This document shows, one piece after another, positions 137-56,931 of a stretch of 64,000 nucleotides of DNA; the first letter of the stretch is position 1, and every line of letters begins with the position of its first letter. The DNA lies in NCBI GenBank assembly GCA_036171915.1, contig JAVHRY010000092.1:15298-79297 (forward strand), read 5' to 3'. Position numbers and translations under genes: made by a program. This stretch comes from Elusimicrobiales bacterium (lineage in GTDB: Bacteria > Elusimicrobiota > Elusimicrobia > Elusimicrobiales > UBA9959). The notes beneath the pieces are model-generated. The model saw only the letters and a program-made list of their open reading frames with translations. It was not told where the DNA came from and did no database searches.

Positions 137-1690
137 TTATTTATTCCCAGGCGCTTTAGCTCCACGCGCTTCTCCCTCCCCCCCGCGGGCCCGCAACAAG
201 ACCTTAATATTCTGTTTCAGCCGCTGCTCAAAAACCGAGCTGGAGGTGTTCCAGGACAGGAAGGCCTTCAGCAGCTGCCCCGGCCGGGCCAAATAATACA
301 CCGCGTAGAACAGGACCGTCCCGGAAAGCTGGTATATGGACAATTCAAAAGGCCCTGCGGCCCCGCAATAGCGGTTTTTATTCTTAAGGAAAAGATTGAG
401 GCCGAGAGAATTGAAATACCCGTCGTCCAGCGCCGGGATAATTTTTTTCTCCAGCAGGCTTTTAAAATACTCCGAGCCGGGATAAGGGGAGAACTGAAAA
501 ACCGGCGCGTCGTTCACCCCCATAAAAGCGAGCTTCAACTGCAGGAAAAGGGTCTTAAATATCTGGGCCCTTGTTTCTCCGGGGAAGCCTATTATCAGGT
601 TGGCTTTTACCCCCAGCCCCAGTCGGCGGGCGCTCTTCACCACCTTTGTAAAAGCCTTAAGGTCCAGGTTCTTGCCCGCCGCGTCCAGCACCTGGCCGGA
701 CCCGCTTTCGGGGGCGAAACCCAGATACCTGGCCCCGCTGGCGCTTGCCAGCCCAAGGAGTTCTTCATCCAGGGCTTCAAAGCGGGTCCCGGAAGCCATC
801 TGCCAGGTTATTTTTAATTTCCGGGCCAGCAGCAGCGCGCAAAAGTCATGCAGCCATTGTTTCCCTATAATAGGGGACAGGTCGTAAAATTCCACGCATT
901 GTACGCCGTATTTCTTTATATACAGCTCAATCTCATCAACTACGTTCTGCGGGCTTCTGTGAATGTAATAATCCCCCCACATGCCGGGGTTCGAACAGAA
1001 TTTGCATGAGTACGGGCACCCGCGGCTGGAGAGTATCGGCAGTGTCCTGCCCTGATAAGGGCCGTGCGACAGCCCGGCCCGGAAATAGTTTTCAACCGGG
1101 ACCGCGTCCCATAAAGGCAACGGCATCCCGTCAAGCGCGGCTATCCTGGCCCTCGGCGGGGTTTTTAAAAAAGCCCCGTCTTTTCTGAAAGCGATACCGT
1201 TTATTTTTTCTATGCCGGAACCGCCGGACAGGGCCCCGGCGAGTTCACTTAAGGTTTCCTCGCCCTCCCCGATAACGGCGATATCTATTCCCGGAGCCTG
1301 GGCCAGCACAAGTTCGGGCAGGGCGGAAACATGCTCCCCCCCGGCCACAATTTTTATGCCGGGTAAAGCCGCCTTTATTATTTTCACAACTTCCCTGTTG
1401 AACGGCCATTCCGGGGAAAACATGCAGGAAACCCCCAGCACGGCCGTATCGCGCGGGATTTTGCGGATTATTTCCGCTATAGCCAAGCCCCGGTATTTGT
1501 AGTTTTTTACCCCCGGGAGGACCGCGATATTTTCAAGCCCTTCGCCCAGAGAATCTATAACCGTAACAGGGAAACCGTGAATTGTCAGGTATGCCGCCAG
1601 GCTTGCCAGAGCCAGCGGCGGGGCGACGGAGGAAACATTGAACTGCCCCTCCGGCACCGGCGTAGGGAAGCGCAGCAGGGTGAGCCGCAT
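137..1690 (-). CDS. B12-binding-domain radical SAM protein (class B, likely methyltransferase-type)
   Basis: CxxxCxxC radical-SAM motif (GCPYSCKFCSNP) follows an N-terminal Rossmann-like B12-binding region. Start moved to ATG 1690, which has a GGGAG SD ~6 nt upstream and lies 1 nt after the upstream stop. The ORF track gives 1732. Confidence 0.8.
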   Translation of the reverse strand: MRLTLLRFPTPVPEGQFNVSSVAPPLALASLAAYLTIHGFPVTVIDSLGEGLENIAVLPGVKNYKYRGLAIAEIIRKIPRDTAVLGVSCMFSPEWPFNREVVKIIKAALPGIKIVAGGEHVSALPELVLAQAPGIDIAVIGEGEETLSELAGALSGGSGIEKINGIAFRKDGAFLKTPPRARIAALDGMPLPLWDAVPVENYFRAGLSHGPYQGRTLPILSSRGCPYSCKFCSNPGMWGDYYIHRSPQNVVDEIELYIKKYGVQCVEFYDLSPIIGKQWLHDFCALLLARKLKITWQMASGTRFEALDEELLGLASASGARYLGFAPESGSGQVLDAAGKNLDLKAFTKVVKSARRLGLGVKANLIIGFPGETRAQIFKTLFLQLKLAFMGVNDAPVFQFSPYPGSEYFKSLLEKKIIPALDDGYFNSLGLNLFLKNKNRYCGAAGPFELSIYQLSGTVLFYAVYYLARPGQLLKAFLSWNTSSSVFEQRLKQNIKVLLRARGGEGEARGAKAPGNK

Positions 1691-1691
1691 C

Positions 1692-2480
1692 TTAGCTCCC
1701 GCCCGGACCGGGCCGCGGGAAAACGGGAGCACCTGTTCTTTTCAGGAACCTCCCGGCTATGTTCATTTTAGCGAACCTGTCCACATCCCCGGGGATCCCC
1801 AGCCCGTACATCCCGTTGAATTCTTCCCCCACGTTGAACAGGGCGACCCGGAGCCCCTTCGCCAGCATTTCGTTGTAAACGGGTGCGACATAAAATTCGC
1901 CGTTCACCCGGAAATCTTTTTTGATCATGCTTTCGGCGGCCTCTACAAAACAGCGCCCGCGCTTGAAGTTATAGACGCCCACGGTCGCCTCGTTCGACAC
2001 CACCTGTTTTTCAACCACTTCCACTGCCCTGCCCAGCCCGTCCAGCCTTACGAACGACCACTTGGGATCGTCCGCCAGCATTGTCATTATAAGGCCGTCC
2101 GCGCCCGCCATGGCGTTCAAATAAGCGTCGATATCGACGTCCGCCAGCTGGTCGCTGTTGGCCAACATTAAAGGCTCGTCGTTGTTTATCAGCTCTTTGG
2201 CCAGCAGCACAGTGCAGGCGGCGCCGGCGGTCAGCCCGGGGACCGCGATAATTTCACAGCCGGGCTCCAGCGCTCTTAAAACCTTGTCTATGCCGTACCG
2301 GGAAAGGTGTTCTTCCCGGCAGAGAAAAATAAACCTGTGCGGCGCCAGGGGCCTCAGGTTGCTGATCACGTAGTTTATGATCGGGACCCCGTCTATGGGG
2401 ATAAGCGGTTTCGGCAGGGTAAACCCGGCTTCCGCGAAACGCCTGCCCTCCCCAGCCATCGGGATAACTATATTAAGCAT
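1692..2480 (-). CDS. Sugar/alcohol-phosphate nucleotidyltransferase (NTP_transferase fold)
   Basis: N-terminal IVIPMAGEGRRF...LPKPLIPIDG signature of nucleotidyltransferases. Packed tightly against the flanking genes. Confidence 0.75.
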   Translation of the reverse strand: MLNIVIPMAGEGRRFAEAGFTLPKPLIPIDGVPIINYVISNLRPLAPHRFIFLCREEHLSRYGIDKVLRALEPGCEIIAVPGLTAGAACTVLLAKELINNDEPLMLANSDQLADVDIDAYLNAMAGADGLIMTMLADDPKWSFVRLDGLGRAVEVVEKQVVSNEATVGVYNFKRGRCFVEAAESMIKKDFRVNGEFYVAPVYNEMLAKGLRVALFNVGEEFNGMYGLGIPGDVDRFAKMNIAGRFLKRTGAPVFPRPGPGGS

Positions 2481-2481
2481 G

Positions 2482-2811
2482 CTAAGGCCGCCCCGTACTG
2501 AATTTGTCGTCCGGGGCTCCGGGGACCTTGACCACCACGGTTACCACGTCGGACTCCGCCCTGAAGTCGGCGCTTTCCCCCGGCTCAACAACTATAATAT
2601 CACCGGCCCCGTATTTTACGCCGTTCATCTCCGCGCTCCCTGAAATTATGGCCGTTACCTCCGTAGCTATTTTATGGAAGTGGGCCCCGCCATAATAGCC
2701 TTTCTTATATTCTTTAACCCCCACCTCCGCGGACGGCGTCGCCAGGCAGGAGGGCGTGAAGCCGCCGACGAACCAGCCGCGCGTCATATCCTTTAATTTA
2801 TATTTTTTCAT
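2482..2811 (-). CDS. Small cupin-fold protein
   Basis: 109 aa with a GGAHFHK...GDIIVVEPGE pattern typical of cupin barrels. Overlaps the upstream gene by 4 nt. Confidence 0.5.
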   Translation of the reverse strand: MKKYKLKDMTRGWFVGGFTPSCLATPSAEVGVKEYKKGYYGGAHFHKIATEVTAIISGSAEMNGVKYGAGDIIVVEPGESADFRAESDVVTVVVKVPGAPDDKFSTGRP

Positions 2812-3449
2812 TTCAAGTCCGTTCCCCTGGCGGCCGCGATTATCCGCTCCTTCACGAAAGCATAACAGACCTCTTTAATATCCCTTACCCTGGCCACATG
2901 CGCCCCAGAACCGTAAGCGGCCTTTAAGCCCGCGGGATGGTCCTCCACAACAAGGCATTCCGCGGGCGCCAGCTTTAACCGGAGGAACGCCTCCAGGTAA
3001 ATCCGGGGGTCAGGCTTGGACTTCGGGACGTCCTGGTTGCCCAGGTAAAAATCAAAATAGCCTGCCAGGCCGCTCCCGGAGAGCGCGGCGGCTATGGTTT
3101 CCCTGGTAGAATTTGAAGCCGCCGCAAGTTTATAACCTTCAGCTTTCAGCCTGCGCAGCATCTCCGTGCGCGCGCCGCAGGGCCGGCAGTTTCCCGCAAC
3201 AAGTTCAATGGTATAGCGCTGCTTCAGCGCGTTTATTGAAGAATAAAGCTCCGCCGGCAGCCCCTTCAGCCTGGACATGAGCTTAAGCTTTTCCCTTGTA
3301 GGCAGCCCTTCGTAATGGCGCTCGTGCTCCTCCCTGGTAAGAGTGAAGCCGTGTTCGGAAAGCGCGCGGCTGAGGGCCTGGTAATGCCAATCCCCGGTGT
3401 CCACGAGCACGCCGTCCAGGTCGAAGATTACGGCCTTAATTACGCCCAT
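2808..3449 (-). CDS. HAD-superfamily phosphatase (beta-phosphoglucomutase-like subfamily)
   Basis: Motif I FDLDGVLVDT is present, with later HAD motifs (AAASNS, VVEDHPAG). Confidence 0.8.
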   Translation of the reverse strand: MGVIKAVIFDLDGVLVDTGDWHYQALSRALSEHGFTLTREEHERHYEGLPTREKLKLMSRLKGLPAELYSSINALKQRYTIELVAGNCRPCGARTEMLRRLKAEGYKLAAASNSTRETIAAALSGSGLAGYFDFYLGNQDVPKSKPDPRIYLEAFLRLKLAPAECLVVEDHPAGLKAAYGSGAHVARVRDIKEVCYAFVKERIIAAARGTDLK

Positions 3450-4050
3450 TAAAATACAGTTCCGCCCGCCGCGGAAAATCCGTGCAAAGCATCAGCTGGC
3501 CACTCCCGGCAGCCGCCTCTATTTTTTTCAGTTCCCGCCAGGTTTTTTTAAAATTCCTGTTATGCAGCTCCGGGGACACTACGCAGACCCGTTTATCGCT
3601 GGCCAAGTGTTCTTTTATGGCCTCCGGGCCTATCCAGCTGCTGTAGAACTCGTCCAGCCAGACGCCCCGCGCCTTACCGTAAAAGGCCGGGGCCCGTTCG
3701 TATTCGCTTTGCCGCGTAAATATTTTCATGCCGCTCTTTAAATATTCAACCCCGTCAGGAACGGACATGTCAAAAACGAAATAGTTCTTGATCCTGAATC
3801 TCTTGACAAGGGCAAGCAGCCTTCCCTGCAGGCCGCAGGCTTTAATGTTCAAAGCCAGGGGCGGCTGCGGTTTTAACGGCGCGTAGACCTTCAAGAATTT
3901 TTCAAGCTTGACGGCCCGCGCCGTAGGCAGGCCGTGAGACACCACGAGTCCGCGGGCAAGATCGCGTATATCCAGCTCGGCGCCTAAGCCGGCCCGCAGA
4001 GCGGCCCGGAAACTTGCAGGCTTATTGGCCCTGTGCCAGAGTATTTGCAT
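3436..4050 (-). CDS. Hypothetical protein, glycerophosphodiester-phosphodiesterase-like (PLC-like TIM barrel)
   Basis: N-terminus WHRAN...AELDIRD...VVSHG resembles the HR..E.D..HD pattern of GDPD enzymes. AAGGA SD upstream; 15-nt gap to the upstream regulator gene. Confidence 0.4.
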   Translation of the reverse strand: MQILWHRANKPASFRAALRAGLGAELDIRDLARGLVVSHGLPTARAVKLEKFLKVYAPLKPQPPLALNIKACGLQGRLLALVKRFRIKNYFVFDMSVPDGVEYLKSGMKIFTRQSEYERAPAFYGKARGVWLDEFYSSWIGPEAIKEHLASDKRVCVVSPELHNRNFKKTWRELKKIEAAAGSGQLMLCTDFPRRAELYFNGRN

Positions 4051-4065: not shown

Positions 4066-5448
4066 CTAACGTTTTACACCCAGGCCGTAGGCCTTTATTT
4101 TGTCATAAAGCGCCTTCCTGTCAATGGAAAGCAGTTTCGCGGCCCTGACCTTGTTGCCGCCGGCGGCAGCCAGGGCCGCCGTTATGAGGCGCACCTCGGT
4201 TTCGGCCCTGGCCCGCCTCAGGCTTTCTTTCATGTTCAGGTCCAGTGGCCCGGCGGCGGTTTCGGGCGCGCGGGCCGCCGGGTAAGGCTGCCCTTCAAGC
4301 CCCAGGTGAACGGGCAGGATCTCACCGCCGCTGAGCAGTGCGGCCCTTATTATCACATTACGCAGTTCGCGCACATTCCCCGGCCAGTTGTAGGCGGCCA
4401 GGGCGGCCAGCGCCGACTCTGAAATGGTTTCGATTTTTTTATTTACCAGTTTCTCCGCTTCCCGCAGGAAAAAAACCGCGAGTACGGGGATATCTTCTTT
4501 CCGCTCGGCCAGGGCCGGCACCCGCACGGTAAACTGGTTCAGGCGGTGGTAGAGGTCCTCCCTGAACACCCCTTCCCTTATTTCCCCGGGCAGGTCACGG
4601 TTGGCAGCCGCGATAATGCGCGCGTCCACCGGGATGTCTTTTTTGCCGCCGAGGTGGCGTATTTTCCTTTCTTCCAGCACGCGCAGCAGCTTGGCCTGCG
4701 TAGCCGCGGTAAGGTTGGCTATTTCATCCAGGAAGAGCGTGCCGCAGAAAGCCATTTCAAAAAGGCCCGGCTTGCGCCTGTCCGCCCCGGTAAACGCCCC
4801 GCGCTCATAGCCAAAAAGTTCGCTCTCCACCAGGTTCTCCGGCAGCGCGCCGCAGTCAAGCGCCACAAAAGGGTTTGAGTTCCTGGGGCTCAGGCGGTGG
4901 ATCTCGCGCGCCCAGACTTCCTTGCCGGAGCCGGACGGGCCGGAAAGGATCACGGTAAGGTCGGTGGCGGCCACCTGCGCGGCCAGGGCGGAGACCTGGC
5001 GCATTACGCGGCTGGGGCCCAGCACCGGCCCCTGGCCCTGGGCGCTTTTTACATGGCTGCGCAGCGCTTCGAATTCCTGCTTAAGCCGGCGCTCTTTTAT
5101 GGCGTGTTCCATTATCATCAGCAATTCTTCATTCCCGAAGGGCTTTACCAGGTAGTCCAGAGCGCCGAGCTTCATGGCTCTTACCGCGCTCTGCACGTCG
5201 GCGTGCCCGGTAAGTATCACCACCGGCAGCCCGGGGTCTTCCCCTTTAAGTTTTTCAAGCACCGCCAGGCCGTCGGCGTCGCCCAGCTTAAGATCCAGCA
5301 CAACGGCGTCAAAGGCAAAGCTCTCGGCGAAGTCCACGGCCTCCGCCCCGGAAGCCGCGGCGGTGCAGGCATGCCGCCCGGACTCAAGCGCGGCTTTAAG
5401 CACAAAGCGGGTGTCTTCGTCGTCCTCGGCTATTAAAATATTTCCCAT
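4066..5448 (-). CDS. Sigma-54-dependent response regulator (NtrC family: REC + AAA+ + Fis-type HTH)
   Basis: REC acidic pocket (EDDEDT, VVLDLKLGDADG), Walker A GPSGSGKE, intact GAFTGA loop (ERGAFTGA) and a C-terminal HTH (NKVRAAKLLSIDRKALYDKIK). Confidence 0.9.
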   Translation of the reverse strand: MGNILIAEDDEDTRFVLKAALESGRHACTAAASGAEAVDFAESFAFDAVVLDLKLGDADGLAVLEKLKGEDPGLPVVILTGHADVQSAVRAMKLGALDYLVKPFGNEELLMIMEHAIKERRLKQEFEALRSHVKSAQGQGPVLGPSRVMRQVSALAAQVAATDLTVILSGPSGSGKEVWAREIHRLSPRNSNPFVALDCGALPENLVESELFGYERGAFTGADRRKPGLFEMAFCGTLFLDEIANLTAATQAKLLRVLEERKIRHLGGKKDIPVDARIIAAANRDLPGEIREGVFREDLYHRLNQFTVRVPALAERKEDIPVLAVFFLREAEKLVNKKIETISESALAALAAYNWPGNVRELRNVIIRAALLSGGEILPVHLGLEGQPYPAARAPETAAGPLDLNMKESLRRARAETEVRLITAALAAAGGNKVRAAKLLSIDRKALYDKIKAYGLGVKR

Positions 5449-5487
5449 TAGTCCCTGTTATCCCCTTCCCGGCCGGTGTAAAGCGGC

Positions 5488-6597
5488 TTATACTATTTTC
5501 CGGAACCGCAGGCTCACCACGGCTCCGCCGTCCGGAGAGGGCTGCACGCTTATCCGCCCGCCGTGCTCGTCCATTATCTGGCGGGCCAGGTAAAGCCCCA
5601 GGCCGGTTCCATTTTCCTTGGTGGTAAAAAAAGGCTGAAAAATATTTTCAAGGACCGCCGGCTCCAGCCCCGGTCCGTTGTCGGAGATAGTTAAGAAAAC
5701 TTCGCCCTCCGCCTCAAGCCAGCCCGAAGCTATCTTTATAGTCCCGTCCCGCCGTCCGGCAAGCGCCTGTGCGGCATTATTAAGCAGGTTGTAAATTACG
5801 CTGTGCATGTAGCGCGGGTCCAGGAAGACCTTCGGCGCCTTGTCGAAGTTTTTTTCAACGCCGATCTTTGCGGCTTTAAGGGAGCTGTCCATAAGCCCCA
5901 GGGCGTATTCGGCGGCTTCAGTTGCCGAATACGGTTCAAGCCGGCACATGCCGCTGTGCGAGAAATCCAGCAGGGTCTTAACTATTTTAGAAGCGCGCCG
6001 CGCGTTGCGCTCTATCAGCTCCGCCGAAGACCGGACCTGCTCCGTCTGGCCCTCCTGCGCCCGCAGCAGTTCCGAGGCGGACAGGATAACGTGCAGCGGG
6101 CTCTTTATATCGTGCGCGAACATGGAGGTGAGCTGGCCGATGGAGGTGAGGCGCCCCAGTTTGCGGGCCGCGTTACGGAAAGCGTGGGGGTCTTTGAGCA
6201 GCGCCCACTCGTCGGGGGAAACCGGGGACAGGTAAAGGCAGAAACCGTTGACCCCGCCGGCGTCGTCTTTAAGCGCCTGCGCCGTCAGAAAGATCCGGAC
6301 TATGCTGCGCTGGGCGGTAAGCAGGTAAAAACAGTAGTTGCGCACGATGCCGTTCTTAACGGCCAGCCCGGCCAGGCGCGAAAACTCCTTAAAGTCTTTT
6401 TCAAGCATCAGGGACGCTGCGGAGTTCCCGGTTATGGCGTTTTTTTCCCAGCCGAGCAGGACCAGGGCGCTGTTATTTACCAGCAGTACGGTAAGTTGCC
6501 TGTCCAGCACCAGCGCGGGCTCCGGCGAATTGACGAAAATAGAGTTAAAAAGGCTGCGCTGTATTCCGTGCAGTTGAGACTCGTCGCTTCCGGTCAT
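5488..6597 (-). CDS. Soluble PAS-domain sensor histidine kinase
   Basis: H-box FAHDIKSPLH, N-box LLNNAAQA, G-boxes DNGPGL and GTGLGL. No obvious TM segment. Its start overlaps the upstream stop (ATGA). Confidence 0.85.
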   Translation of the reverse strand: MTGSDESQLHGIQRSLFNSIFVNSPEPALVLDRQLTVLLVNNSALVLLGWEKNAITGNSAASLMLEKDFKEFSRLAGLAVKNGIVRNYCFYLLTAQRSIVRIFLTAQALKDDAGGVNGFCLYLSPVSPDEWALLKDPHAFRNAARKLGRLTSIGQLTSMFAHDIKSPLHVILSASELLRAQEGQTEQVRSSAELIERNARRASKIVKTLLDFSHSGMCRLEPYSATEAAEYALGLMDSSLKAAKIGVEKNFDKAPKVFLDPRYMHSVIYNLLNNAAQALAGRRDGTIKIASGWLEAEGEVFLTISDNGPGLEPAVLENIFQPFFTTKENGTGLGLYLARQIMDEHGGRISVQPSPDGGAVVSLRFRKIV

Positions 6598-7640
6598 AAA
6601 TTTTTCCTATAGAGGTTTACCGAGCGGCGGGAAACCTTGAGCCCGTAACCGGCCCGAAGTGCCGCCGCCAAAGCCGCGTCGGTCATTTTTATTCCGCCCT
6701 CCCCCAGGACTTCCATTATTTTACCAATTACAAAATCCTTTTTAGCAAAGAAAAGACTTCTTAATTTTATTTCCTCTCCACCGGGAATAATTACGGTTTT
6801 AAGCGCTATCAGCCTTGAAAGAGTGCCGGGGTTCAGGCCCAGCCTGTCGGCAAGCTGCCGCTGGCTTAAAGGCTTAAGCGGGCCCCGGCCCGACAAAAAA
6901 TCCGCCTGCGCTTCCATCAGCGCGGAGAGCGCCCTGTGCAGCCCGTCCTTGCGCCAGGACAGGCGCTGCGCCATGGAAGCCAGCGCCCGCGCCCGCGCTC
7001 TTTCCTGGCGGCTGAGCCCGCCGCTTTTAAGCAGCCGCGAAAAGGCCGGCCCGTTTATGACGTAGGCGCCGCGGAAATAGGACGGGTTAAGATAGGAAGC
7101 GTACAGGCGCCCTTCTTCGGCGCAGATCTTCGCGGCGCAACGCAGATACACCGCCGGCAGGGCGGCCGGGGCGGTGCGCTCGTGGGCAAGAATAAAAGCG
7201 TCCGCGAACCCCCTGAGCGCGGCGGTTTGGGCTTCGCTTATGCCGCAGGCCAGGGCGGACTCCTCCACGGAGCGCCGCCGGCCTGAAAGGAAATATTCGG
7301 AAAAAGCCGCCTCGCCCACGCGCCCGGCCAGCGCCGCCATGGCGGGCCGGTCGGAGAGCCACTCGCCGGCGCTGGCTCCGGAAGCCGCGGCAGCCAGGGC
7401 AGCGTCGGACACGGCGTAGGAAAAAGCGTAAGAAGCGCCGGCGAACTTGCGCCGGACGACCGGCGCGTCCCCGCCCGTCCCGGGGGCGCAAAGCCTGGCG
7501 AACAGCGGGTCGGCCTTCAGCTCGGCCTCCAGGCGCAGAAAATCCTCCTCCGGCGCCGCCAGCACCGAAAACAGCCGCAAGTCCTGGCGCAGCACCTGCG
7601 CCTGGGAAAGATCAAGTCCCTGTTTCTTCCGTTTTTCCAT
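6594..7640 (-). CDS. rpoN: Short RNA polymerase sigma-54-like factor (348 aa)
   Basis: Region-I-like Leu/Gln-rich N-terminus (LSQAQVLRQDLRLFSVL...DPLF). C-terminal HTH segment LKPLSQRQLADRLGLNPGTLSRLI...EIKLRSLFF. RpoN-box-like end LKVSRRSVNLYRKNL. The middle is Ala-rich and much shorter than the usual core-binding region. Confidence 0.6.
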   Translation of the reverse strand: MEKRKKQGLDLSQAQVLRQDLRLFSVLAAPEEDFLRLEAELKADPLFARLCAPGTGGDAPVVRRKFAGASYAFSYAVSDAALAAAASGASAGEWLSDRPAMAALAGRVGEAAFSEYFLSGRRRSVEESALACGISEAQTAALRGFADAFILAHERTAPAALPAVYLRCAAKICAEEGRLYASYLNPSYFRGAYVINGPAFSRLLKSGGLSRQERARARALASMAQRLSWRKDGLHRALSALMEAQADFLSGRGPLKPLSQRQLADRLGLNPGTLSRLIALKTVIIPGGEEIKLRSLFFAKKDFVIGKIMEVLGEGGIKMTDAALAAALRAGYGLKVSRRSVNLYRKNL

Positions 7641-7712
7641 TGGAGAAATCCTAAACTGAATTATAACAATTTTGCCCCTTTTAGGAGGTTTAAGCCCCAG
7701 CCGTCGGCAGAA

Positions 7713-7741
7713 TTGACATACGGCGTTATGATTGATAGATT
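7713..7741 (+). promoter_or_regulatory. Sigma-70-type promoter candidate for nrdJ (TTGACA-17-TAGATT)
   Basis: TTGACA at 7713-7718, 17-nt spacer, TAGATT at 7736-7741. It lies ~44 nt upstream of ATG 7785. The ORF-track start at 7713 is the TTG of this -35 box. Confidence 0.5.
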
Positions 7742-7784: not shown

Positions 7785-10295
7785 ATGAAAACTATTCCGA
7801 TCTACAGAAAACCCGTCACCCTCAGCGAAAACCAGGCGAAGGTTATCAAGGACAAATACCTGCGCGGCGAAAGCACGGTTGAGGAACTCTTTGAGCGCGT
7901 GGCGCATAATATTTCCCTTTCCGAACTCGTTTTCCACCCCGACGCCGGACAATGGGGCCTTTTTGAAGGAGTCCGCTGCCGCGTAGCCGGAGCGGGCGGC
8001 GCGGAAAATTCTTCGCGTTCGCTGCTTTTTCACGATGGGATCTCCGAAGCCTCGGAGCGCGAAGCTAATTTCCTCAGGTTCACCGCCAACCTCGAGAACG
8101 CCTATAAAACCATCCCCGCGGCCCGCGAAGCCGCCGACCGCAGGCGCGCGGAGTTCTACGGCCTTATGGCCCAATTCGACTTCCTGCCGAACTCCCCCAC
8201 CCTGATGAACGCGGGCCGCGAGCTGCAGCAGCTGTCCGCCTGCTACGTGCTGCCCGTGCCGGACTCCATGGAAGGCATAGCCAAAGCGCTCACCGCCCAG
8301 AGCCTTATACAGAAATCCGGCGGCGGCACGGGCTTTTCTTTCTGCCGCGTGCGCCCCAAAGGTGATACGGTAAAGAAAACCAACGGCGTGGCCTCCGGCG
8401 CAATTTCGTTCATGAAGCTTTTTGACAAGCTGACCGACGTGGTAAAGCAGGGCGGCACGCGCCGCGGCGCCAATATGGGCATACTGCCCTACTGGCACCC
8501 GGAGATAAAAGAGTTCATCGCCATAAAGTCCCAGCCGGGCGCGCTTGAAAATTTCAATATTTCAATAGCGCTGGACGACAAATTCATGAAAGCCGCGGCG
8601 GCCAACGCCGGCTACGACCTGATAAACCCGCGCGACGGCCGGGCAGCCGGCTCCATGAAAGCCAAAGAAATATTTACCGCGCTGGTAAATTCCGCCTGGG
8701 AGACCGGCGACCCCGGCATAGTTTTTCTTGACCTCATCAACGAGACCAATTCCAATCCCACCCCGGCGCTGGGGCAGATAGAGAGCACAAACCCCTGCGG
8801 AGAACAGCCTTTGTTGCCGTGGGAATCCTGCAACCTGGGGTCTATAAACCTGGCGAATTTCGTTGTAAAAGGCGCGAACGGAGCCGGAATGGACTGGGAC
8901 CGCCTGGGCGCCACCGTTTTCAAGGCGGTGCGTTTTCTGGACGACGTTATAGAGATAAACAATTATCCGCTGCCGGAAATTGAGAAGATAGCCAAGGGCA
9001 ACCGCAAGATAGGCCTGGGCGTTATGGGCTGGGCCGAAACCGCCGTAAAACTGGGCGCGGCTTACGACAGCCCGCAGGGTCTTAAGACCGCCGAAGAGGT
9101 GATGAAATACATTAACGAGCGCGCGCTTGAAGCCTCCGTTGAACTGGCCAAAGAACGCGGGGTTTTTTCGAATTGGAAAGACTCAATTTACGACGCGCAG
9201 GGGAAACATTTCAGGGGCGCGGCGGCCAGGCCCAGGAACGCCTCGCGCACTACCATCGCCCCCACCGGCACCATAGCGATAGCGGCCGGGCTGCAGGGCT
9301 CGGGCATAGAGCCTTTTTTCGCCATCGCTTACACCCGCTATAACGCAAGAGCGCTGGACGCCATAAAGAACAACCGGGACCCGGAAGCCAAAGACACCTT
9401 CTATGAAGTAAATACGCTGTTCAAGCAGGCGGCAAAGGAACACGGTTATTTCGGCCTGGACGAGGCCGCGCTGTGGAGGAAAATAGAGACCAATCATAAA
9501 TCTATACGCGGCATACCAGAGATCCCCAAACGGATACAAGATCTTTTCCCGACCGCCCACGACGTATCCATAGAGAACCACGTAAGGATACAGGCGGCTT
9601 TCCAGAAGCATACGGACAACGCCGTTTCAAAGACCATCAACATGCCGAACTCCGCCTCCGCGGAGGACGTAAAGAACTGCTACCTGCTGGCGCATAAGCT
9701 GGGCTGCAAGGGAATTACGGTTTACCGCGACGGCTGCAAGGCCCAGCAGGTGCTTAATCTCGACGCGAACGCTCCCCGGCAGGCAAAGACGAAAAAAAGG
9801 AAAGCCGCGCAGCAGTCTTTCGGCGTTTCTTCGGAATACTTCCAGCTCAAGACCGGTTACGGCCCCCTGCACGTGCATATAAACTACGACGAGCACGGCC
9901 CCTCGCAGATCTTCACCAACATGCCCCCCCTGGGCACCGAGATCAGCGGGCTTACCTCGCTTATCGGCATACTGCTTTCCAAATACCTGGAGGAAGGCGG
10001 CGACCCCGTCAAGATCATAAAACATCTCAACTCCATTAAGGGCGACCGGCCGATGGGGCTGGGTGATAACCGGGTTAATTCTATAGCCCACGGCATAGCT
10101 TTGGCGCTAAGGAGCCACCTTAAGCGCACGGGGATAATATCCTCAGACCAGGATATTAACGGGGTGGAGAAACTGGAACTCTGGGAAGCCTCCCGCACCC
10201 AGTACTGCCCGAAATGTTATTCTTCCAACGTCAGCTACGAATCCGGCTGCTCCGGCCCCGCCTGCCACGACTGCGGCTACTCGGAGTGCTCCTGA
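7785..10295 (+). CDS. nrdJ: Class II (adenosylcobalamin-dependent) ribonucleotide reductase with C-terminal Cys-rich zinc-ribbon tail
   Basis: Active-site block ESTNPCGEQPL, with extended similarity pattern to NrdJ. C-terminal CPKC...CHDCGYSEC. Start set at ATG 7785 with AAGGA upstream. Confidence 0.9.
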   Translation: MKTIPIYRKPVTLSENQAKVIKDKYLRGESTVEELFERVAHNISLSELVFHPDAGQWGLFEGVRCRVAGAGGAENSSRSLLFHDGISEASEREANFLRFTANLENAYKTIPAAREAADRRRAEFYGLMAQFDFLPNSPTLMNAGRELQQLSACYVLPVPDSMEGIAKALTAQSLIQKSGGGTGFSFCRVRPKGDTVKKTNGVASGAISFMKLFDKLTDVVKQGGTRRGANMGILPYWHPEIKEFIAIKSQPGALENFNISIALDDKFMKAAAANAGYDLINPRDGRAAGSMKAKEIFTALVNSAWETGDPGIVFLDLINETNSNPTPALGQIESTNPCGEQPLLPWESCNLGSINLANFVVKGANGAGMDWDRLGATVFKAVRFLDDVIEINNYPLPEIEKIAKGNRKIGLGVMGWAETAVKLGAAYDSPQGLKTAEEVMKYINERALEASVELAKERGVFSNWKDSIYDAQGKHFRGAAARPRNASRTTIAPTGTIAIAAGLQGSGIEPFFAIAYTRYNARALDAIKNNRDPEAKDTFYEVNTLFKQAAKEHGYFGLDEAALWRKIETNHKSIRGIPEIPKRIQDLFPTAHDVSIENHVRIQAAFQKHTDNAVSKTINMPNSASAEDVKNCYLLAHKLGCKGITVYRDGCKAQQVLNLDANAPRQAKTKKRKAAQQSFGVSSEYFQLKTGYGPLHVHINYDEHGPSQIFTNMPPLGTEISGLTSLIGILLSKYLEEGGDPVKIIKHLNSIKGDRPMGLGDNRVNSIAHGIALALRSHLKRTGIISSDQDINGVEKLELWEASRTQYCPKCYSSNVSYESGCSGPACHDCGYSECS

Positions 10296-40860: not shown

Positions 40861-43800
40861 TTATTTTATTATCGCCATCTTATGCGCCTTGGCGCCTAGT
40901 TTTTTGCCGTCAAGGTATGTCAGCATGAAATACACCCCGGAGGCGCACTCGGAGCCATTGTCGTTCCTGCCGTCCCACTCGGAATAATACACATTGTTGC
41001 CGTCGCGCGGCCCGTCATTTATGGCGCGCACTTTTTCGCCGGCCAGGTTATATATAACGAACTTAACATTGCCCGACTTGCCAGCCGGCAGGTTATACTT
41101 TATAACCGTACCTTTTGTGGTGTAAGCGCTGACACCGTCAAACCCCGCAAGCCCCGCGAAGGCCGCGGTACCCTGTATGTTTTTGACAGTCTTGGATTTA
41201 AGGCTGAACGGATTGGGTATGTTGTAAACCTCGAACGAGGAGCTGAACGCGCTTATACCGGTAGTGGGCTTGGCCGTGAACACGGCGAACTTGCCCGACT
41301 GTGACGACGAGGTAGCGGCGCTGGGCACGTACCTGCCGCCGCTTAGGGCGCTCATATGGAACTGCTTGCGTTCCAGCGGGGTATTGGCGCCGTCCGCGCC
41401 CCTGTAAGCCCCGTCGAGGCTCCGCACGTCCACCGACACCACGCCCGTCATCGGGTCCACGGTGTAGTTCCCCGGCACCTCCTGCCAATCGCCGGTGTCC
41501 TGGGACTGCTGGTAGATCCGCAGGGCGCCGGAGTTCAGGCCGCGCTCCTTGTCGTATTTCAAGGTCAGCGTGAAGGGTTTGTTCCCCTGCACGTTGGCCA
41601 GGTTAAAGCTGTAAACTTCCGAGGCCATCAGGTTCTGAATAGCGGTCTCTATGCTGGCTTTGCCTTTGGCGGTCTTAACCGTGCGAACCGACGGCAGCGA
41701 GCTGAAAAAGCCGCCTACCAGGCCCGACAGATCGGCGGTGCCGGACGAGGCGGTCAGCGTACCCGCGTCCAGCTCTATGCCGGAATACTCCTCGTTCTCG
41801 GAGTCGAGGTCTATCTCGCCGCCTTCGCTGGCGGCGTCCTCTATGTACTGCTCGGTGCGGACATCGTTGGCCTCGTCGTAAACCACGTTCTTTACCATTT
41901 TAAGGAAGTCGTCCCCCATGCTGTCGTCAAACGCTTCCACGTGGACATTATATGTTTTGCCGGATGAGACGGTGAATTTCCCCACATACGTATTATCAGG
42001 GTCCAGCCTTAAAGACAATGAAACCGCGGTTGCAGGATCATAACAACCGCCGGAATTATTTTCGCATCCGGGCGCGGTTACCAGGTTATACCAACACCGG
42101 GGAGCCTTTATCAATTCTTTGGGGCTTTGGATCATAACATCCGCTTTCATGTCGGAGTCCTGGGACTTCCTTATTTTTACGGTAACCTGCGGGTTGGCAT
42201 CCACAAGCACAATGGGGTTCCCAAGGACGGTCACTCCCACCGAAGCCGTACAGGATGACTTCCCGATAGGTTTTCCCGGGTAAAGCGCCGAGATGTTATA
42301 AACGTGCCCCGGATTTATGCCGGGCAGCTCAAAGCCGCCCGCTTCGTCGGTCTGCGCCTGTATTTTAGGCAGATAAGAAGCGGGGGAGGTTGTGTTGAGA
42401 GTTTCGTCATAAGCCGTTACTTTAATGCCGGCTTTAGCGGTAGCGCCGCCCAAACCCCCGCCCAGCAATACCGTGCCGGTTATACTGGAGGTGGAGGGGA
42501 CCATGTATAAATTAAATGAAGCGTTGTCGCTGCCGGTTATGCTGCCGGCCAGGCTGGTTTTCTCCCCGGTGGTAACAAAGCCGTCGCGCGAAACCTCAAG
42601 CCGGTAAATACCGGGCGGGAGGTTTGTGAAACTGAAAGCGCCGTAATCGTCGGTTTTCGCCAGTTTCTCAACTATGCGGTGCTTTAAATACACGGAAGCG
42701 TTAGGGAGCAGCGCGCCGGCCGCGCCGGAACTCCTGACCACTCCGGAAATAGCCCCTACAGCAAGGCGCTGCGCGTCAAAATCGAACTCCTTGGCCTCGT
42801 CGGCCGGCAGGTTGACGGACACCGGCACCGGGGGATAGTTGGGGTTGGCGAACACAGCCGTATAATTGCCGGGAGGCAGGCCCCAGATCATATAACTCAG
42901 CGGCCGCGCCGCCAGCACCGAAATGATAGTGGCGGAACTTTTATTGGTTACGCCGGCTTCAAAAGGCCCGATAGCCTGTTCGTCCGGCAGGGCGTGAGAG
43001 AAGCCGCGGAAATCCCCCGCCGTATCATAAAGCATTACGGCCGGGATAAGCCCTATTATTTCAGTGTCAAAAGCCGCGAAGATCTTGGCATAGTCGGAAT
43101 CCGTGAATATTTTTGTTCCTCTCACATGCCCGGCAATGCTGTCCTGGCCTATTGAACCGAGTATTTCTACCGAGAGGGGCTGAGCCATAGTTCCAAGGTT
43201 GGGATTAACTTTCGCCTGCTGCGCGGTCACATTTATGGGCACATTTTTCTCCTTGCCTATAAAGTTGGCGAACTGGCTGCAGCTCCCGCCCGGCTTGCCG
43301 CAGTCGAACTTGGTGCCAAGCAGCAGGTAAAAGTCGTACTGGCCGGGGGACATATACTTGGTCTCCCAGCCGGTAGCGGTGCTGTAATTAAAAGCGAACT
43401 GGTCCTGGCCAAAGAACAGGTCGGTTATCTTCTGCTGGTTCATCTGCGTGCCGGAGGGCAGGGGGATGACAAGATAAGACCAGGCCGCAGTTGAGATCTC
43501 GGGCAGGCCGAAGATGTTAGGCTTCACTGCCAGGCCGGTTTCAAGGTTAAAAGTCAGATCAGTGTTCCTGCCAGCCACTATATTTACATTTTCCAGCGTT
43601 TGCACCGGCCAGAAGAAGCTGGTGGTATTAGGCGCCAGGGATACATTATAAGTACCGGCCGGGAGGTTCGGGAACTTGGCGTTGCCATAATTGTTAATAC
43701 TCTCGCCCTCCTGGGCTGAAACATTTTTACCGGTAACATTTATATTGAGCGGGGACCCAATTCCCTGCGGGGGATTATAAAGAGAACCGTCGGGTAATTT

Positions 43801-46800
43801 TACTTTGCAGGAAAGGCTGCCGGATTTTACCAGACTGAAGTCCATGCGCGCCGTCGTGGTGGAAGTAAGGTCTATGTCCCCGCCGAAAGAGGAGGCATTC
43901 CCCCACTCGTTCGAAATCACTCTGCTCCAATAACTGCTGCCGCTGGCCACAATTATAGAGTAGGCCGTGGTGTTGCTGTCAAGCGTGCCGGAAATGGCGG
44001 TAAGCCCCATCTTCCTGGTTTGACAATCCGAGTCGCACTGCTCCTGCGCCATTATTATTATCGCCGAAGATTTGCTGATGACAAAGGTGTTGGAAGGCGT
44101 TACGGTATAGGTGGTGGCAAAGGTGACATAGCCGGTTATACTCCCTGTGGCGTTCGTGTTGCCCTGGATATTAAACACATAAGGCTGCACGCCCTTGCAG
44201 GTACCGGAGCTGTCCAGCACCCAGGCGAGGCCCGCCGTGCAGGGGTTGTGGCTGGGCAGCGCGGGCGCGGTAGCGCCGGCCGCGGAAACAGTCACGCGCA
44301 GGTCGTCGGGAGTGTTTGAAAGATTGTCGGGCCCGTTATTTAACTTTAAATACAGCGGGGATTCAACGCTGAGGCTCACATTGCCGTCTACCAGGCCGTC
44401 AAGCAGGAACTGGCCGTCGCCGTCGGTATAGGCGGTACTTTCCATCCCGACGCAGGGATGCATGCCGCCGTAGGAGTCTGCCCCGGCCCAGTTCTTGCAG
44501 TCCCCCTCCACGCGCACCTGGGAATAAGGCACAGGCATGCCGTTATACCTTATATAGCCCTTTAAAGTGTAAGTAGCCAATTCAAGCTGATACGTGGCGT
44601 TCATCATCGGCAGAACCACGCCTTCGCTCCTGACTTTGTAGCCGTTCTTAAAGATATTCAAAGGATACTGCTGGTTCCAGGGAACTGACTGGAAGGAGAA
44701 TCTGCCGTTGATGTCGGTAAAAGTTTCGGCCTGGAATAAATTTTGGCAGGAGCCAGGACAGACAGACGGATTGCTTGAAATATCGATCCGCACATCTTTA
44801 AGCGCGTTGCCGGAACTATCGCCCACGAAACCGCTGAAAGCTACCGCGGAGGCGGCGCCGGTCTGGTAGGTTGCCAGCGGCGCCATGGCCGAGGACATAT
44901 CAACAGATATGAAATTTTCAGAAGGCAGGGCGAACGAGACAGGGGCCGTAAAAGAAAGCCTGCCGGGAACGGACACGGTCAGGCTTAAGGTGTCTTGGGC
45001 CGAAGGCTGCACATTGTAAATTTCCATTGTACCGGCGGTGTCCGTGGCTTTGAACACCCCATAGGCCACGCGCTCGCGGGTCTGCGTAAAAAAGACCTCA
45101 CCCATAAGGCTGTAGCCGCGTACAAGGCCCGAAAGGCTCACATGCAGGGTAGCGCCCTGGTTGGCCGCAGCTATGGGGTTAAGTTCGTATAGCTTGGTGT
45201 CCGCCTGCCTTAAGTTCACTACGAACTTACCCAGCGGGTCGTTTATCTGGTCTTTAACCGTAGGGGATAAGCTGGGAGAAGACAGTACCACCAGGTAATT
45301 CAGGGCAGGGCGCACCGGAGCGGTAAATTTACCGTCGGCGCCGGTCTTGCCGGTGGTCAGGTAACTTCCATCCGGGGAGCCGCCGGAAGGCATGGGGATA
45401 AGCCCTACGTTAACGCCGCTCCGGGGAGCCGCCTGGTTCACAAAAACGGTCAGGGACTTGTTGTTATCGGACAAGTCGTTCTTTGTGATCCTAAGCCCCT
45501 GTGAATTGTTGCCGCTGAAACTACCCATCATATACGCACTGCCTGCCGCGTCCACGGCCACGGCCTTGCCGTAGTTGTAGCCCTGGCTGTAGGAGGAGGA
45601 GGAAAGCAAGAGCAGGTTGTTGTCGTATTGCAGGCCGATGGCGCTGCCGTTCATCATGGAGCCGCCATAATAATTCTGCTGGCCTGAACCGTCAGAGTAC
45701 CCGGCCACATAAACATTACCGGCCGCGCCCACGGCCACGGAATTGGCGGTTTCCATGCTGCCGGCGTTGAATAAGGCCAGGTTCTGGAAATTCAGGCTGT
45801 TATTGTACTTTACGGTAAGGATATCGTTGCTCATGCCGTTATTGGTGTAGCCGGTAACGAACACATTCCCCGCCTGGTCCACGGCCAGGGAGTTAGCGAC
45901 GTCGTTGCTGGTCTGGCCCATACCGCTGAAGACCGCTGAAGATTGAAAAACGAGCTCATTATTAAACCAGGCTGTCACCCAGTTACTGGCGGTGTCGGTG
46001 CTCGTGGCGCTGTAATAGCCGGTAAGAAACACATTACCGGATTTATCCACGGCGATGTCGGAGGGCGTATCCCAGTAGTTTATACCCGCGCTCCCGGAAG
46101 CGAAAGCGGCTGTGGTCTGCAGTACAGGGGGATTGGAGTTGTCGTATTTAGCCAAAAACATATCCTGGCTCATGGTGGACATGTTGTAGTAGATTCCCAG
46201 AACATACACATTGGCAGCCGCGTCCACAACAAAGGCGACTGGGCGCGGATACTCGTTGCCGATATAAGACGCCGAAGACCGCCAGACCAGGTTTGTGTCG
46301 TACTTGTTTATAAGCATCCCTGACGTCCCTGAATTATAAAACCCGCCCAGCGTATAAACGTTGCCGCCCTGGTCCAGGGCCAGGTCGGCCGGGACGCCGT
46401 AGTCCATGGTGGTACTGCCGATAGTGCTTGAATACACCCGCGCCATGGAAAAGCTATTCGAAGCGGTTGATTTTATTATAAGGTAGTCCCCGCGTACGCC
46501 CTCGCCGGGCATGGGCGCGGTGCCGCCCATATTACTGATCGTCCCCAGGGCGTAAATAAAAGGACCGCCGGCCGTTACAGTGTCAACCGCCACGGCCCGG
46601 GGTTCTATGCTGCCGCCGTTGTCGAACACCAGGCCGTCGGGCTGGCTGAAGCCGCCGGCAAAGCCTTGCCCCACCCTGGGGCCGTACATTTTATTGGTAA
46701 CAGGGTAACCGATAGCGTCGGCGTTATTGATATCTTTAGCCTCAAAACTATAGGAGTAATTGTTGCCTGCCGCCAGGATAACAGTGGATTTATATATCTC

Positions 46801-49546: not shown

Positions 49547-50986
49547 CTAAAACCGCAGCAGCCCCGCGTCTTTAAGCAGTTTGGCGGAGTACATCACGTC
49601 TATTGTGCGCCCGTTGAAAAGGGAACTGGTATAAACGCGCTCAAAGTTAAGGCGGTCGGTTATCTGGTCTACGGTCTCGCCCCCGCCCAAAGCGCCGCTG
49701 AAATCCCCGGCGGAAAGGATCTTGCCGTCGTCAAACAGTACAAAGTCCTGCGCCGTTATCCAGGTATGGTCTATATCGCTGTAGGTGTTTTTTTTGACAC
49801 TTTGAAAAACGCTGCCGTTGAGCGTGTAAGTCGGGGCGGAACCCCCCAGGTATGAAACAGAATCCGCGGTGAGCGCGGGGACGTTATAATTCACAGCTTT
49901 CCAGAACAACCTGCCCAGCCCGCCGTTCTCCCCGGACTCAGAAGGCCCGGCCGCGTAAAAAGAATAATTCCCGAAAACCAGGTTATAGCGGGGGTCGGCG
50001 GCGCTGCCGTTATAGGCCATGCGGCCGAAGGAAGCGTCCTCGGTAACCTTGTCCTGGGTATTGGACATCACGCTGTTCATGGCGGTAAGGCGCCACTGCG
50101 GCGCTTCGGAACCGGGAGAAGAGATCATATTGGCCGTAGCCAGCGAAAGGTCGGCAGGGAGGGCGGCATTAAAAGTGAATAAGATCTTGCCAAAATCAAA
50201 ACGGCTGGCGCGGGTGTTCAGCACCACGTATTTAAACTGGTTGTCCGCGGGCCTGATGGTGTATTCTTCCATGCGCACACGGTTGCCGAAGGCGTCTATG
50301 GCTACTTTGCGGCTCTGGAATTCCGCGGATTGTATCTCCTCCTGCGCCCTGGCGATTACGTCCGCTTTGGATATCTCGCTGTAGATCTCGTTGCGGGCTA
50401 TCTGCCTGGGGTCGCCCACCGAGGAATTCATATTACTGGGGTCGTTAAAGTTCTGCCCCGGCTCCCGGAGTTTGCCGCCGGCCGGCACCTCGGCGAACTG
50501 CCCTTCGCGCACCAAACCGGTGTTGCCCTTGCTGTCGCCGGCTAGCACGGAACCCTCGTAAACCTCCACCCGTGAACCGTCGGCATCCGCTTCCACCATA
50601 AAATCAGTGCCGCGCACGGCGCAGACCGCGGAAGGCGTACGCACTTCGAACTTCTTGGAGAATTTCTTAACCCAGGAGCGCACCCGGCCGAAATAAAGGC
50701 CCAGGGAGACAGAGTCTTTGTTTTCGGTACTCATTTTAAAAGAGGACAGCGGCGCCAGCTTAACCAGTGAGCCATCGTCCATGAAGAGCTGCACGGTGGA
50801 GGCGCGGGCAGTGCGCAGCGCGTCCCCGTCGGCCAGGCGGGTCTTCTCGTCACCGGCAAGCCTTACCCATTCGGCGGAAGCGCTCTTTTTTAGATCCACC
50901 TCGCCCCGCCAGGAATCAATATAGGCGGCGCGCGCAGGCAGGCAGGCAAACAAGAAAACCGCTGAAACAATCAGCCGTTTCATCAT
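49547..50986 (-). CDS. Secreted FecR-domain protein with an uncharacterised ~300-aa C-terminal region
   Basis: Signal peptide. The FecR-like block is GDALRTARASTVQLFMDDGSLVKLAPLSSFKM...FEVRTPSAVCAVRGTDFMVE. AAGGAG SD 7 nt upstream. Confidence 0.65.
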   Translation of the reverse strand: MMKRLIVSAVFLFACLPARAAYIDSWRGEVDLKKSASAEWVRLAGDEKTRLADGDALRTARASTVQLFMDDGSLVKLAPLSSFKMSTENKDSVSLGLYFGRVRSWVKKFSKKFEVRTPSAVCAVRGTDFMVEADADGSRVEVYEGSVLAGDSKGNTGLVREGQFAEVPAGGKLREPGQNFNDPSNMNSSVGDPRQIARNEIYSEISKADVIARAQEEIQSAEFQSRKVAIDAFGNRVRMEEYTIRPADNQFKYVVLNTRASRFDFGKILFTFNAALPADLSLATANMISSPGSEAPQWRLTAMNSVMSNTQDKVTEDASFGRMAYNGSAADPRYNLVFGNYSFYAAGPSESGENGGLGRLFWKAVNYNVPALTADSVSYLGGSAPTYTLNGSVFQSVKKNTYSDIDHTWITAQDFVLFDDGKILSAGDFSGALGGGETVDQITDRLNFERVYTSSLFNGRTIDVMYSAKLLKDAGLLRF

Positions 50987-54051: not shown

Positions 54052-54091
54052 ATATATGGCTTTAGAGATATCCATGGAGGGTCCGGTACAA

Positions 54092-55417: not shown

Positions 55418-55426
55418 ACCGCCTCT

Positions 55427-56904: not shown

Positions 56905-56931
56905 AAGCGGGACAAGCGTTCCGCTTTTTTT
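56905..56931 (+). terminator. Rho-independent terminator of the pal-cpoB-tolB unit, displaced from the tolB stop by the MITE
   Basis: AAGCGGGAC-AAGC-GTTCCGCTT (9-bp stem, one G:U pair) followed by TTTTTTT. Confidence 0.7.

Follow-up and report, generated by a model that had tools for sequence, protein, structure and literature searches.

A compact sigma-54-like protein, sigX, and its linked kinase, activator and candidate promoter in Elusimicrobiales

Sigma-54 (RpoN, SigL) is treated as architecturally uniform, that is, as made of a region I, a core-binding domain and a DNA-binding domain, and surveys of the family use models of those parts. In Cereibacter (Rhodobacter) sphaeroides, whose genome holds four rpoN genes, one factor is paired with each cognate activator (RpoN1-NifA, RpoN2-FleQ and RpoN3-AprX) and serves a small set of genes, and no histidine kinase gene is found near aprX (PMC11999139). 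Chlamydia and Borrelia have one sigma-54 and one bacterial enhancer-binding protein (bEBP) per genome, and the gut species Elusimicrobium minutum has neither sigma-54 nor bEBPs (Francke et al. 2011, PMC3162934). Here we analyse 64,000 nucleotides (nt) of DNA from an Elusimicrobiales bacterium (GenBank assembly GCA_036171915.1, contig JAVHRY010000092.1, positions 15,298 to 79,297; the whole stretch is hereafter the window), in which a short sigma-54-like gene, which we call sigX, lies in an operon with a sensor kinase and a bEBP. The protein belongs to a compact branch of the sigma-54 family, previously undescribed, and the best explanation of the locus is a four-part unit: sigX, its sensor kinase, its bEBP and an enhancer-dependent promoter.

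The three genes lie on the minus strand. sigX (6594..7640, stop codon included) encodes the 348-aa compact sigma-54-like protein and is followed by the gene for a soluble PAS-HisKA-HATPase_c histidine kinase (5488..6597, 369 aa; Pfam E-values of 8e-13 for HisKA and 4e-24 for HATPase_c) and by that for an NtrC/AtoC-type bEBP of 460 aa (4066..5448), in which Pfam and NCBIfam models recognize REC, AAA+ Sigma54_activat, AAA_lid and HTH_8 domains (Pfam E-values of 1e-63 for Sigma54_activat, 2e-26 for Response_reg and 2e-11 for HTH_8). An earlier annotation of this DNA, the sequence-only reading, had described a 348-aa open reading frame whose stop overlaps the start of a PAS kinase, followed by an NtrC-type regulator with an intact GAFTGA loop. 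Both descriptions hold: the overlap is the ATGA at 6594..6597, read directly, and the regulator carries the expected Pfam domains with its GAFTGA loop at 4783-4800 on the minus strand. Translational coupling, which had also been proposed, fares less evenly, because the 4-nt overlap occurs in the window and in some relatives (such as L001 and L003) but is not universal. The kinase and bEBP show the features of an NtrC-class two-component system (REC, AAA+ with GAFTGA and HTH_8, with a HisKA/HATPase partner) and resemble AtoS/AtoC and NtrB/NtrC. Their scores fall below every NCBIfam equivalog cut-off, so the cassette is not the ortholog of a named two-component system.

It is the C-terminal half that places sigX among sigma-54 proteins. 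Residues 218-348 (6597..6989, minus strand) match Sigma54_DBD (PF04552) with an E-value of 1.4e-13 and 51 bits against a cut-off of 22.8, and this domain contains both a helix-turn-helix (6804-6869, minus strand; LKPLSQRQLADRLGLNPGTLSRLI) and an RpoN box, SRRSVNLYR (6606..6632, minus strand). Searched against the PDB, the family profile finds Aquifex RpoN (5UI5, E 1.2e-21) over positions 206-349. In hhalign comparisons with canonical sigma-54 proteins of four phyla (seven sequences), family positions 123-348 correspond to E. coli 230-465 (99.7-99.8%, E 1e-26 to 1e-27). An AlphaFold2 model built on the family alignment (pLDDT 86, pTM 0.80) gives a consistent layout, with a disordered tip (1-18), helices (21-51), a helical region (69-155), a beta-hairpin (168-195), a 34-residue helix (211-244), the helix-turn-helix (260-278) and a three-helix C-terminal domain, and the top 26 Foldseek matches of the full model in the PDB are all sigma-54. 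The residues that contact DNA are kept as well: R338, R339, Y344 and R345 of the RpoN box are, like V341 of that box, invariant in 44 close members (family consensus SRR.VN.YR, canonical ARRTVAKYR), R276 of the helix-turn-helix is invariant or nearly so, and T273 and S275 are also conserved. The sequence-only reading had picked out the helix-turn-helix and the RpoN-box-like end and had staked its interpretation on a significant similarity to the sigma-54 DNA-binding domain; both elements are present, and Pfam, the PDB profile and hhalign agree on the similarity. Among the sigma-54 domain models, this is the one that survives alignment. Neither the activator-interacting domain (AID, PF00309) nor the core-binding domain (CBD, PF04963) of Pfam matches the window's sigX even at E<=1, and the rpoN equivalog TIGR02395 reaches 53.1 bits against a cut-off of 277, over model positions 284-425 only.

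The N-terminal half is a different matter. Residues 1-51 (7488..7640, minus strand), comprising a basic disordered tip (1-18) and helices 21-51, are region-I-like by hhalign: family positions 1-60 compared with canonical 1-60 align collinearly, 1-51 to 1-51 (P 1.3e-4, probability 54%; reversed control P 0.21), and the motif E.DPLF.KL stands where canonical proteins have E.NP.LE. The region-I-like N-terminus of the sequence-only reading has moderate support from the collinear alignment and is not seen by the Pfam AID model (0 of 120 family members); in our view, sigX has probably kept a short tip of the region-I type. Where canonical proteins have region II and the core-binding domain, residues 52-160 (7161..7487, minus strand) form a helical module specific to this family. 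The module is Ala-rich, as had been noted (28% Ala against 12% in the DNA-binding domain), draws no Pfam match, has its own conserved motifs (IG.E.F..YFLY and CGL) and matches either of two CBD sub-motifs with only about 20% probability by hhalign. Residues 161-199 (7044..7160, minus strand) hold the segment SP..ARGRY.IDY, modelled by AlphaFold2 as strands at 168-195, and this hairpin is the probable counterpart of the canonical PDviV..nG.W.v.LN hairpin; a comparison freed of the DNA-binding domain (100-215) falls in the same register as canonical proteins (P 0.001, control 0.37), which lends weak support. As judged from these alignments, the half of sigX from hairpin to RpoN box is canonical, and we read the remainder as a smaller family-specific module that has replaced region II and most of the core-binding domain. 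Searches by hidden Markov model against the PDB, by Foldseek with a separately built model and by hhalign give no support to the N-terminal module as a recognizable core-binding domain. Identity in this half (51-64%) matches that over the full protein (52-63%), and it is therefore functional.

The architecture is not peculiar to one genome. A first homologue search returned 69 proteins of 336-384 aa with 52-63% identity, PF04552 as their only such domain and, where named, the label 'hypothetical protein' from Elusimicrobia metagenome-assembled genomes (MAGs). A profile search run exhaustively over 1.84 billion cluster representatives extended this to about 199 clusters (at 50% identity) with E<1e-30, which match end to end and nearly all measure 340-390 aa. 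In 120 distant members, 20-40% identical to the window's sigX, Sigma54_DBD was found in 120, and AID and CBD, at a threshold of E<=0.01, in none. With the N-terminal 210 residues as query, 87 proteins were recovered, all 87 with PF04552 as their only sigma-54 domain; that is, the N-terminal module always co-occurs with the DNA-binding domain. Most named members come from Elusimicrobia, within which divergence is deep (about 25% identity), others are labelled Dehalococcoidales or Peptococcaceae, and several relatives bear the JGI label 'specialized sigma54-like protein'. The N-terminal module has no match on plasmids of cultured bacteria. Shortness by itself is not the cause of the missing domains, as a sigma-54 from Paracoccus versutus pTAV3 makes clear: at 382 aa it is similar in length to sigX and shares a C-terminal Sigma54_DBD, yet it matches AID, CBD and DBD (Pfam E-values of 1.7e-9, 1.1e-26 and 2.1e-28). 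It is unrelated to the N-terminal module of sigX (hhalign 0.7%), and we set it aside as a short canonical sigma-54 and not a family member. The Paracoccus protein (L015:2275-3423) is annotated 'hypothetical protein' beside acetoin dehydrogenase genes, which appears to be a mis-annotation.

Linkage of the three genes is firm among close relatives. In a survey of genomes that covers the close clade only (a less diverse alignment served as query), sigX, kinase and bEBP stay together in 32 of 32 related Elusimicrobia species wherever the contig allows, with one copy each. Identities of 53-63% for sigX, 68-78% for the kinase and 75-83% for the bEBP indicate that sigX evolves faster than its partners. 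Divergent from sigX in the relatives runs a class II ribonucleotide reductase gene, followed by tmk-holB-metG. This is not the lptB-rpoN-hpf-ptsN context of E. coli, and a Pfam census of the window finds neither lptB nor hpf. A canonical rpoN elsewhere in the window was also sought and rejected: in six frames, GAFTGA and the RpoN-box-like SRRSVNLYR occur once each, both in the cassette; tblastn with the seven canonical sigma-54 proteins matched only sigX, through its DNA-binding domain; and the Pfam census of the remaining window genes gave no canonical rpoN. As a separate observation, the reductase gene of three relatives (L016:3375-5625, L018:3594-5835 and L027:3535-5788 by tblastn) is split at residue 338 by an insertion of about 1.24 kb, probably an intein; the window's ortholog (7785-10295) has no interruption.

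Beyond the bEBP lies the fourth part of the unit. An unbiased weight-matrix scan for -24/-12 elements singles out TGGCAAAGTCGTTGCT once in each locus, on the same strand as the operon and 100-1,600 nt past the bEBP stop. The element (written TTGGCA-N6-TTGCTAT, or TGGCAA-N5-TTGCT) is found in 27 loci of related genomes; 20 of the 27 copies are identical, and the variants differ in the spacer only. Two or three palindromes, TGTRGAT-N5-ATCYACA, precede the promoter, and all 53 palindromes in 360 kb fall 60-350 nt upstream of it, where 0.6 would be expected by chance. In relatives, this enhancer starts immediately past the bEBP stop. Downstream of the promoter, after 55-75 nt, starts a conserved target gene, whose product, a signal-peptide protein (MKTLKAL...INYQGRLVD..GNPL.G) with internal repeats, ranges in length from about 390 to over 1,000 aa. 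Palindromes and a -24/-12 core ahead of a gene start are the classical anatomy of an enhancer-dependent promoter. Taken over 27 close and 6 distant loci, the -24/-12 elements are conserved and correctly placed by the cassette. The sequence-only reading had suggested a self-contained sigma/activator/sensor module and a survey of how far the three-gene arrangement spreads; with the genes together in 32 genomes and recurring in distant lineages, and with promoter and enhancer adjoining the cassette, the module is strongly supported.

Between palindromes and promoter sit two further conserved blocks, GTTAACAAGTATTTCACTTTT and TTATCAG-N8-CCTATAAT (L048:10440-10536, with equivalents in L017-L047), which are candidates for an IHF-like bending site, an overlapping sigma-70 -10 element or both; some genomes have about 130 nt inserted between these blocks and the promoter. 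The target itself varies. In one copy (L023:10707-13022) it holds exact tandem repeats, with one 16-mer at intervals of 192 nt and another at intervals of 156 nt, and the only domain match among its orthologs (L016-L047) is a Chlorovirus-glycoprotein-repeat in one of them.

In the window's own genome the unit is displaced. On Logan contig L048, the palindrome lies at 10391, the promoter TGGCAAAGTCGTTGCT at 10537 and the target start at 10611, which puts the enhancer/promoter/target unit some 2.3 kb to the left of where the window starts. A glycan-type block of about 6 kb parts the bEBP from its enhancer in this genome only; it comprises five genes in the window (137..4050, minus strand; a 204-aa unknown protein and HAD, cupin-like, NTP-transferase and B12-radical SAM proteins, from open reading frames and Pfam) and, beyond it, a GT2 gene and a 441-aa gene on the other strand (L048:8109-10219). 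Because the cognate promoter is off-window, no intergenic -24/-12 site is found in the window, and the canonical TGGCAC-N5-TTGCW shows no enrichment there (18 found, 27.5 expected). In L018 and L019, TGGCAA-N5-TTGCT was not found within more than 1.4 kb past the bEBP; their target unit may be displaced further off, as in the window's genome.

The sigX operon itself appears to be driven in another way. A sigma-70-type extended -10 element, TGTTATAAT (7660..7668, minus strand), lies 19 nt upstream of the ATG, and its TTGTTATAAT block is invariant across an alignment of 32 sigX upstream regions, which is why the operon looks sigma-70-driven. On the opposite strand, the reductase has a divergent sigma-70-type promoter, TTGACA, 17 nt, TAGATT (7713..7741, plus strand), whose blocks TTGTCAAAT and TAATCTATCAAT are likewise conserved. 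We had considered that sigX might activate its own operon from a -24/-12 promoter, an idea rejected for the Elusimicrobia close clade in view of the conserved extended -10; the sigX of L008 may differ in this respect.

At about 25% identity, among distant lineages, the sigX-kinase-bEBP unit recurs in all but one of those sampled, with variable layouts and sensors. Within Elusimicrobia, Ca. Liberimonas (L007) has a divergent kinase, then sigX, then the bEBP, with B12-radical SAM genes directly after the cassette's -24/-12 site; one MAG (L008) has a divergent PAS-kinase-bEBP-REC operon beside sigX; and another (L006) has sigX, REC and a REC-GAF-kinase. Outside Elusimicrobia, three loci (L051, L053 and L055, the second labelled Dehalococcoidales) show sigX, a kinase with an [FeFe]-hydrogenase-like sensor domain and the bEBP, surrounded by Hdr/Mvh and NiFe hydrogenase genes. 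A further MAG (L054) shows sigX, a periplasmic binding protein, a HAMP-kinase and the bEBP, then Rex and Hdr-like genes. All cassettes examined that have a bEBP carry the activator loop GAFTGA, GSFTGA or GAFTDA. The hydrogenase-linked clade repeats the layout with other sensor, promoter spacer and targets: TGGCAAGAAAATTGC[AG] lies 21-82 nt past the bEBP stop and about 60 nt ahead of the next operon in L051, L053 and L055. Strong -24/-12-like sites also adjoin sigX or the bEBP in L006, L007 and L008. The last of these, a MAG of 67% GC, has six correctly oriented intergenic TGGCCGTT-N3-TTGC sites (also written TGGC[CA]G-N..-TTGC) within 21 kb, at 779, 2121, 6657, 7461, 9938 and 11086, upstream of tatA, an Rrf2-cox operon, a CBS gene, a REC gene, sigX and an acetyl-CoA hydrolase gene.

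Taken together, we think it likely that sigX is a sigma-54-type factor that reads -24/-12 promoters, opened by the co-encoded, kinase-controlled AAA+ activator at the palindromes. The operon would be transcribed from its own sigma-70-type extended -10 promoter, an activity that we infer from the DNA alone. The RpoN box and helix-turn-helix of sigX would then bind the -24 GG and -12 GC of TTGGCA-N6-TTGCTAT, while the N-terminal 160 or so residues, the family-specific replacement of region I, region II and the core-binding domain, presumably dock core polymerase. Domain homology and the adjacent promoter suggest that sigX and core polymerase would form a closed complex unable to open alone. On a cytoplasmic signal, the PAS kinase is expected from its family to phosphorylate the REC domain of the bEBP, which would assemble on the two or three palindromes 100-300 nt upstream of the promoter and, using ATP and its GAFTGA loops, remodel the region-I-like N-terminus of sigX. 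The gene for the exported, repeat-rich, length-variable protein, observed at this position, would in turn be transcribed. In other lineages, the same cassette with another sensor (e.g. the hydrogenase-like domain) may drive other operons (e.g. hydrogenases).

Several points weigh against this mechanism. Negative results weigh on the core binding predicted for sigX: the N-terminal 215-residue model has no significant Foldseek match (best E 0.24; the first sigma-54 ranks 12th with E 3.6), a PDB search with the N-terminal profile turns up no sigma-54, and CBD (PF04963) and AID (PF00309) go unmatched in 120 members when a canonical sigma-54 of 382 aa matches both. The functions proposed for promoter and enhancer are drawn from sequence conservation, the -24/-12 promoters could instead be used by a canonical RpoN encoded at another place in the genome, and in L006 no AAA+ activator adjoins sigX. 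In a rival account, sigX is not a sigma factor and occupies -24/-12 elements without recruiting core, tuning or gating the target promoter as a competitor or placeholder for the canonical holoenzyme. Sigma-54 is able to bind promoter DNA without core, an engineered RpoN-box peptide reportedly blocks sigma-54 promoters, and what sigX retains is exactly the DNA-binding half, with no core-binding domain detectable by sequence or fold. For simple occupancy, however, an N-terminal module of about 215 residues, constrained as strongly as the DNA-binding domain and with a region-I-like start, would be superfluous, and the conserved linkage to a GAFTGA-type bEBP would be expected if sigX were the activator's substrate. 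The locus DNA examined, a small part of each genome, shows no canonical rpoN. On balance, we regard the placeholder account as improbable. The chance that sigX is a frameshift or assembly artefact, or a decaying remnant of rpoN, is negligible. It is shorter than most sigma-54 proteins and carries the label hypothetical protein at NCBI, but hundreds of independent assemblies agree on length and end-to-end alignment, and this same-length family refutes the idea. The frameshift that the sequence-only reading had allowed for is contradicted by relatives of the same length that align over the full protein (69 close ones and some 199 distant clusters); purifying selection acts over the entire length of sigX, the AlphaFold2 model is confident, and operon structure and promoter are conserved.

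If sigX is a true sigma factor, as we prefer, it may still be a dedicated second paralog beside a canonical RpoN, a sub-case of the four-part explanation, or the only sigma-54-class factor of its genomes. The near-universal linkage to one kinase/bEBP pair, with sensors and targets changing, is that of a portable module, and the patchy cross-phylum spread (Elusimicrobia, Dehalococcoidales and Peptococcaceae labels) suggests horizontal transfer, both of which favour the paralog. On the other hand, sigX is single-copy in a stable housekeeping neighbourhood (RNR-tmk-holB-metG, RNR being the ribonucleotide reductase) in 32 Elusimicrobiales species, the family's divergence within Elusimicrobia is deep, and the six -24/-12-like sites of L008 stand upstream of unrelated operons, as expected of a general factor. 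To our knowledge, the paralogs described elsewhere are all full-length, which also counts against a dedicated paralog. A precedent for RpoN/bEBP pairs is nonetheless documented (PMC11999139). We give the dedicated paralog a substantial but minority share of belief. That sigX serves as the sole sigma-54-class factor, docking core RNA polymerase via a non-canonical N-terminal module, strikes us as slightly less probable again, and unlikely on its own.

Elsewhere in the window, a 2,448-aa protein (40861-48207, minus strand) has SBBP beta-propeller repeats, CarboxypepD_reg and FlgD_ig domains, with a FecR-domain protein nearby (49547-50986, minus strand). A Tol-Pal segment (54056-56716, plus strand) includes OmpA/Pal, TPR YbgF-like and PD40 TolB-like proteins and is followed by a DUF772 transposase fragment (56930-57430, minus strand). 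A 693-aa protein with an LptC-related domain (59153-61234, minus strand) is adjoined by no lptB, rpoN or hpf.

The sigX family would be missed, or labelled hypothetical, in surveys based on the usual domain models. Elusimicrobia, Dehalococcoidia and further uncultured anaerobes may thus have more sigma-54-type regulation than has been counted. The family is also a natural experiment in how far sigma-54 can be pared down. If sigX works as a sigma factor, the indispensable part would consist of the hairpin, the long helix, the helix-turn-helix, the RpoN box and a short region-I-like tip; the core-binding part would be replaceable, which bears on the origin of sigma-54. Were it the sole sigma-54-class factor (in free-living Elusimicrobia, some Dehalococcoidales and others), activator-gated reading of -24/-12 promoters would have been rebuilt on a different, smaller core-binding scaffold, and the mechanism would move from phylum to phylum as a ready-made plug-in, the sigma factor being packaged with its sensor, activator and promoter. 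For engineering, the cassette is a compact expression switch with parts defined at the sequence level, and possibly an orthogonal one.

We found no description of the sigX family in the literature, nothing relevant on rpoN in Elusimicrobia or Dehalococcoidia, and no description of a compact architecture combined with a conserved sensor/activator operon beside its cognate enhancer and promoter. The nearest relatives are the canonical sigma-54 proteins (RpoN/SigL; E. coli, 477 aa; Aquifex aeolicus, 398 aa; PDB 5NWT, 5UI5 and 5UI8), whose C-terminal half is homologous to that of sigX, whose N-terminal region I is collinear with its N-terminus at moderate significance, and which likewise go with -24 GG / -12 GC promoters (here beside the sigX gene) and GAFTGA-type activators. 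sigX is 50 aa shorter than the Aquifex protein, its central 110 residues are family-specific, and its gene shares an operon with its partner kinase and bEBP and lies outside the lptB-rpoN-hpf-ptsN context. By profile comparison, it belongs to the sigma-54 superfamily through its DNA-binding half and falls short of the canonical family in its core-binding domain and equivalog score. The C. sphaeroides paralogs are full-length and canonical, whereas sigX has a reduced architecture and its gene lies together with those of the kinase and bEBP and with the target promoter. The minimal systems of Chlamydia and Borrelia, a possible parallel for sigX-bearing genomes like the Dehalococcoidales MAGs, have a sigma-54 of canonical architecture, and we know of no case in which its gene shares an operon with a two-component system. 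Finally, NtrB/NtrC and AtoS/AtoC have the same PAS-HisKA-HATPase kinase, the same REC-AAA+-HTH_8 regulator, and tandem palindromes with a -24/-12 promoter; what sets the sigX cassette apart from them is that its operon also encodes the sigma-type partner.

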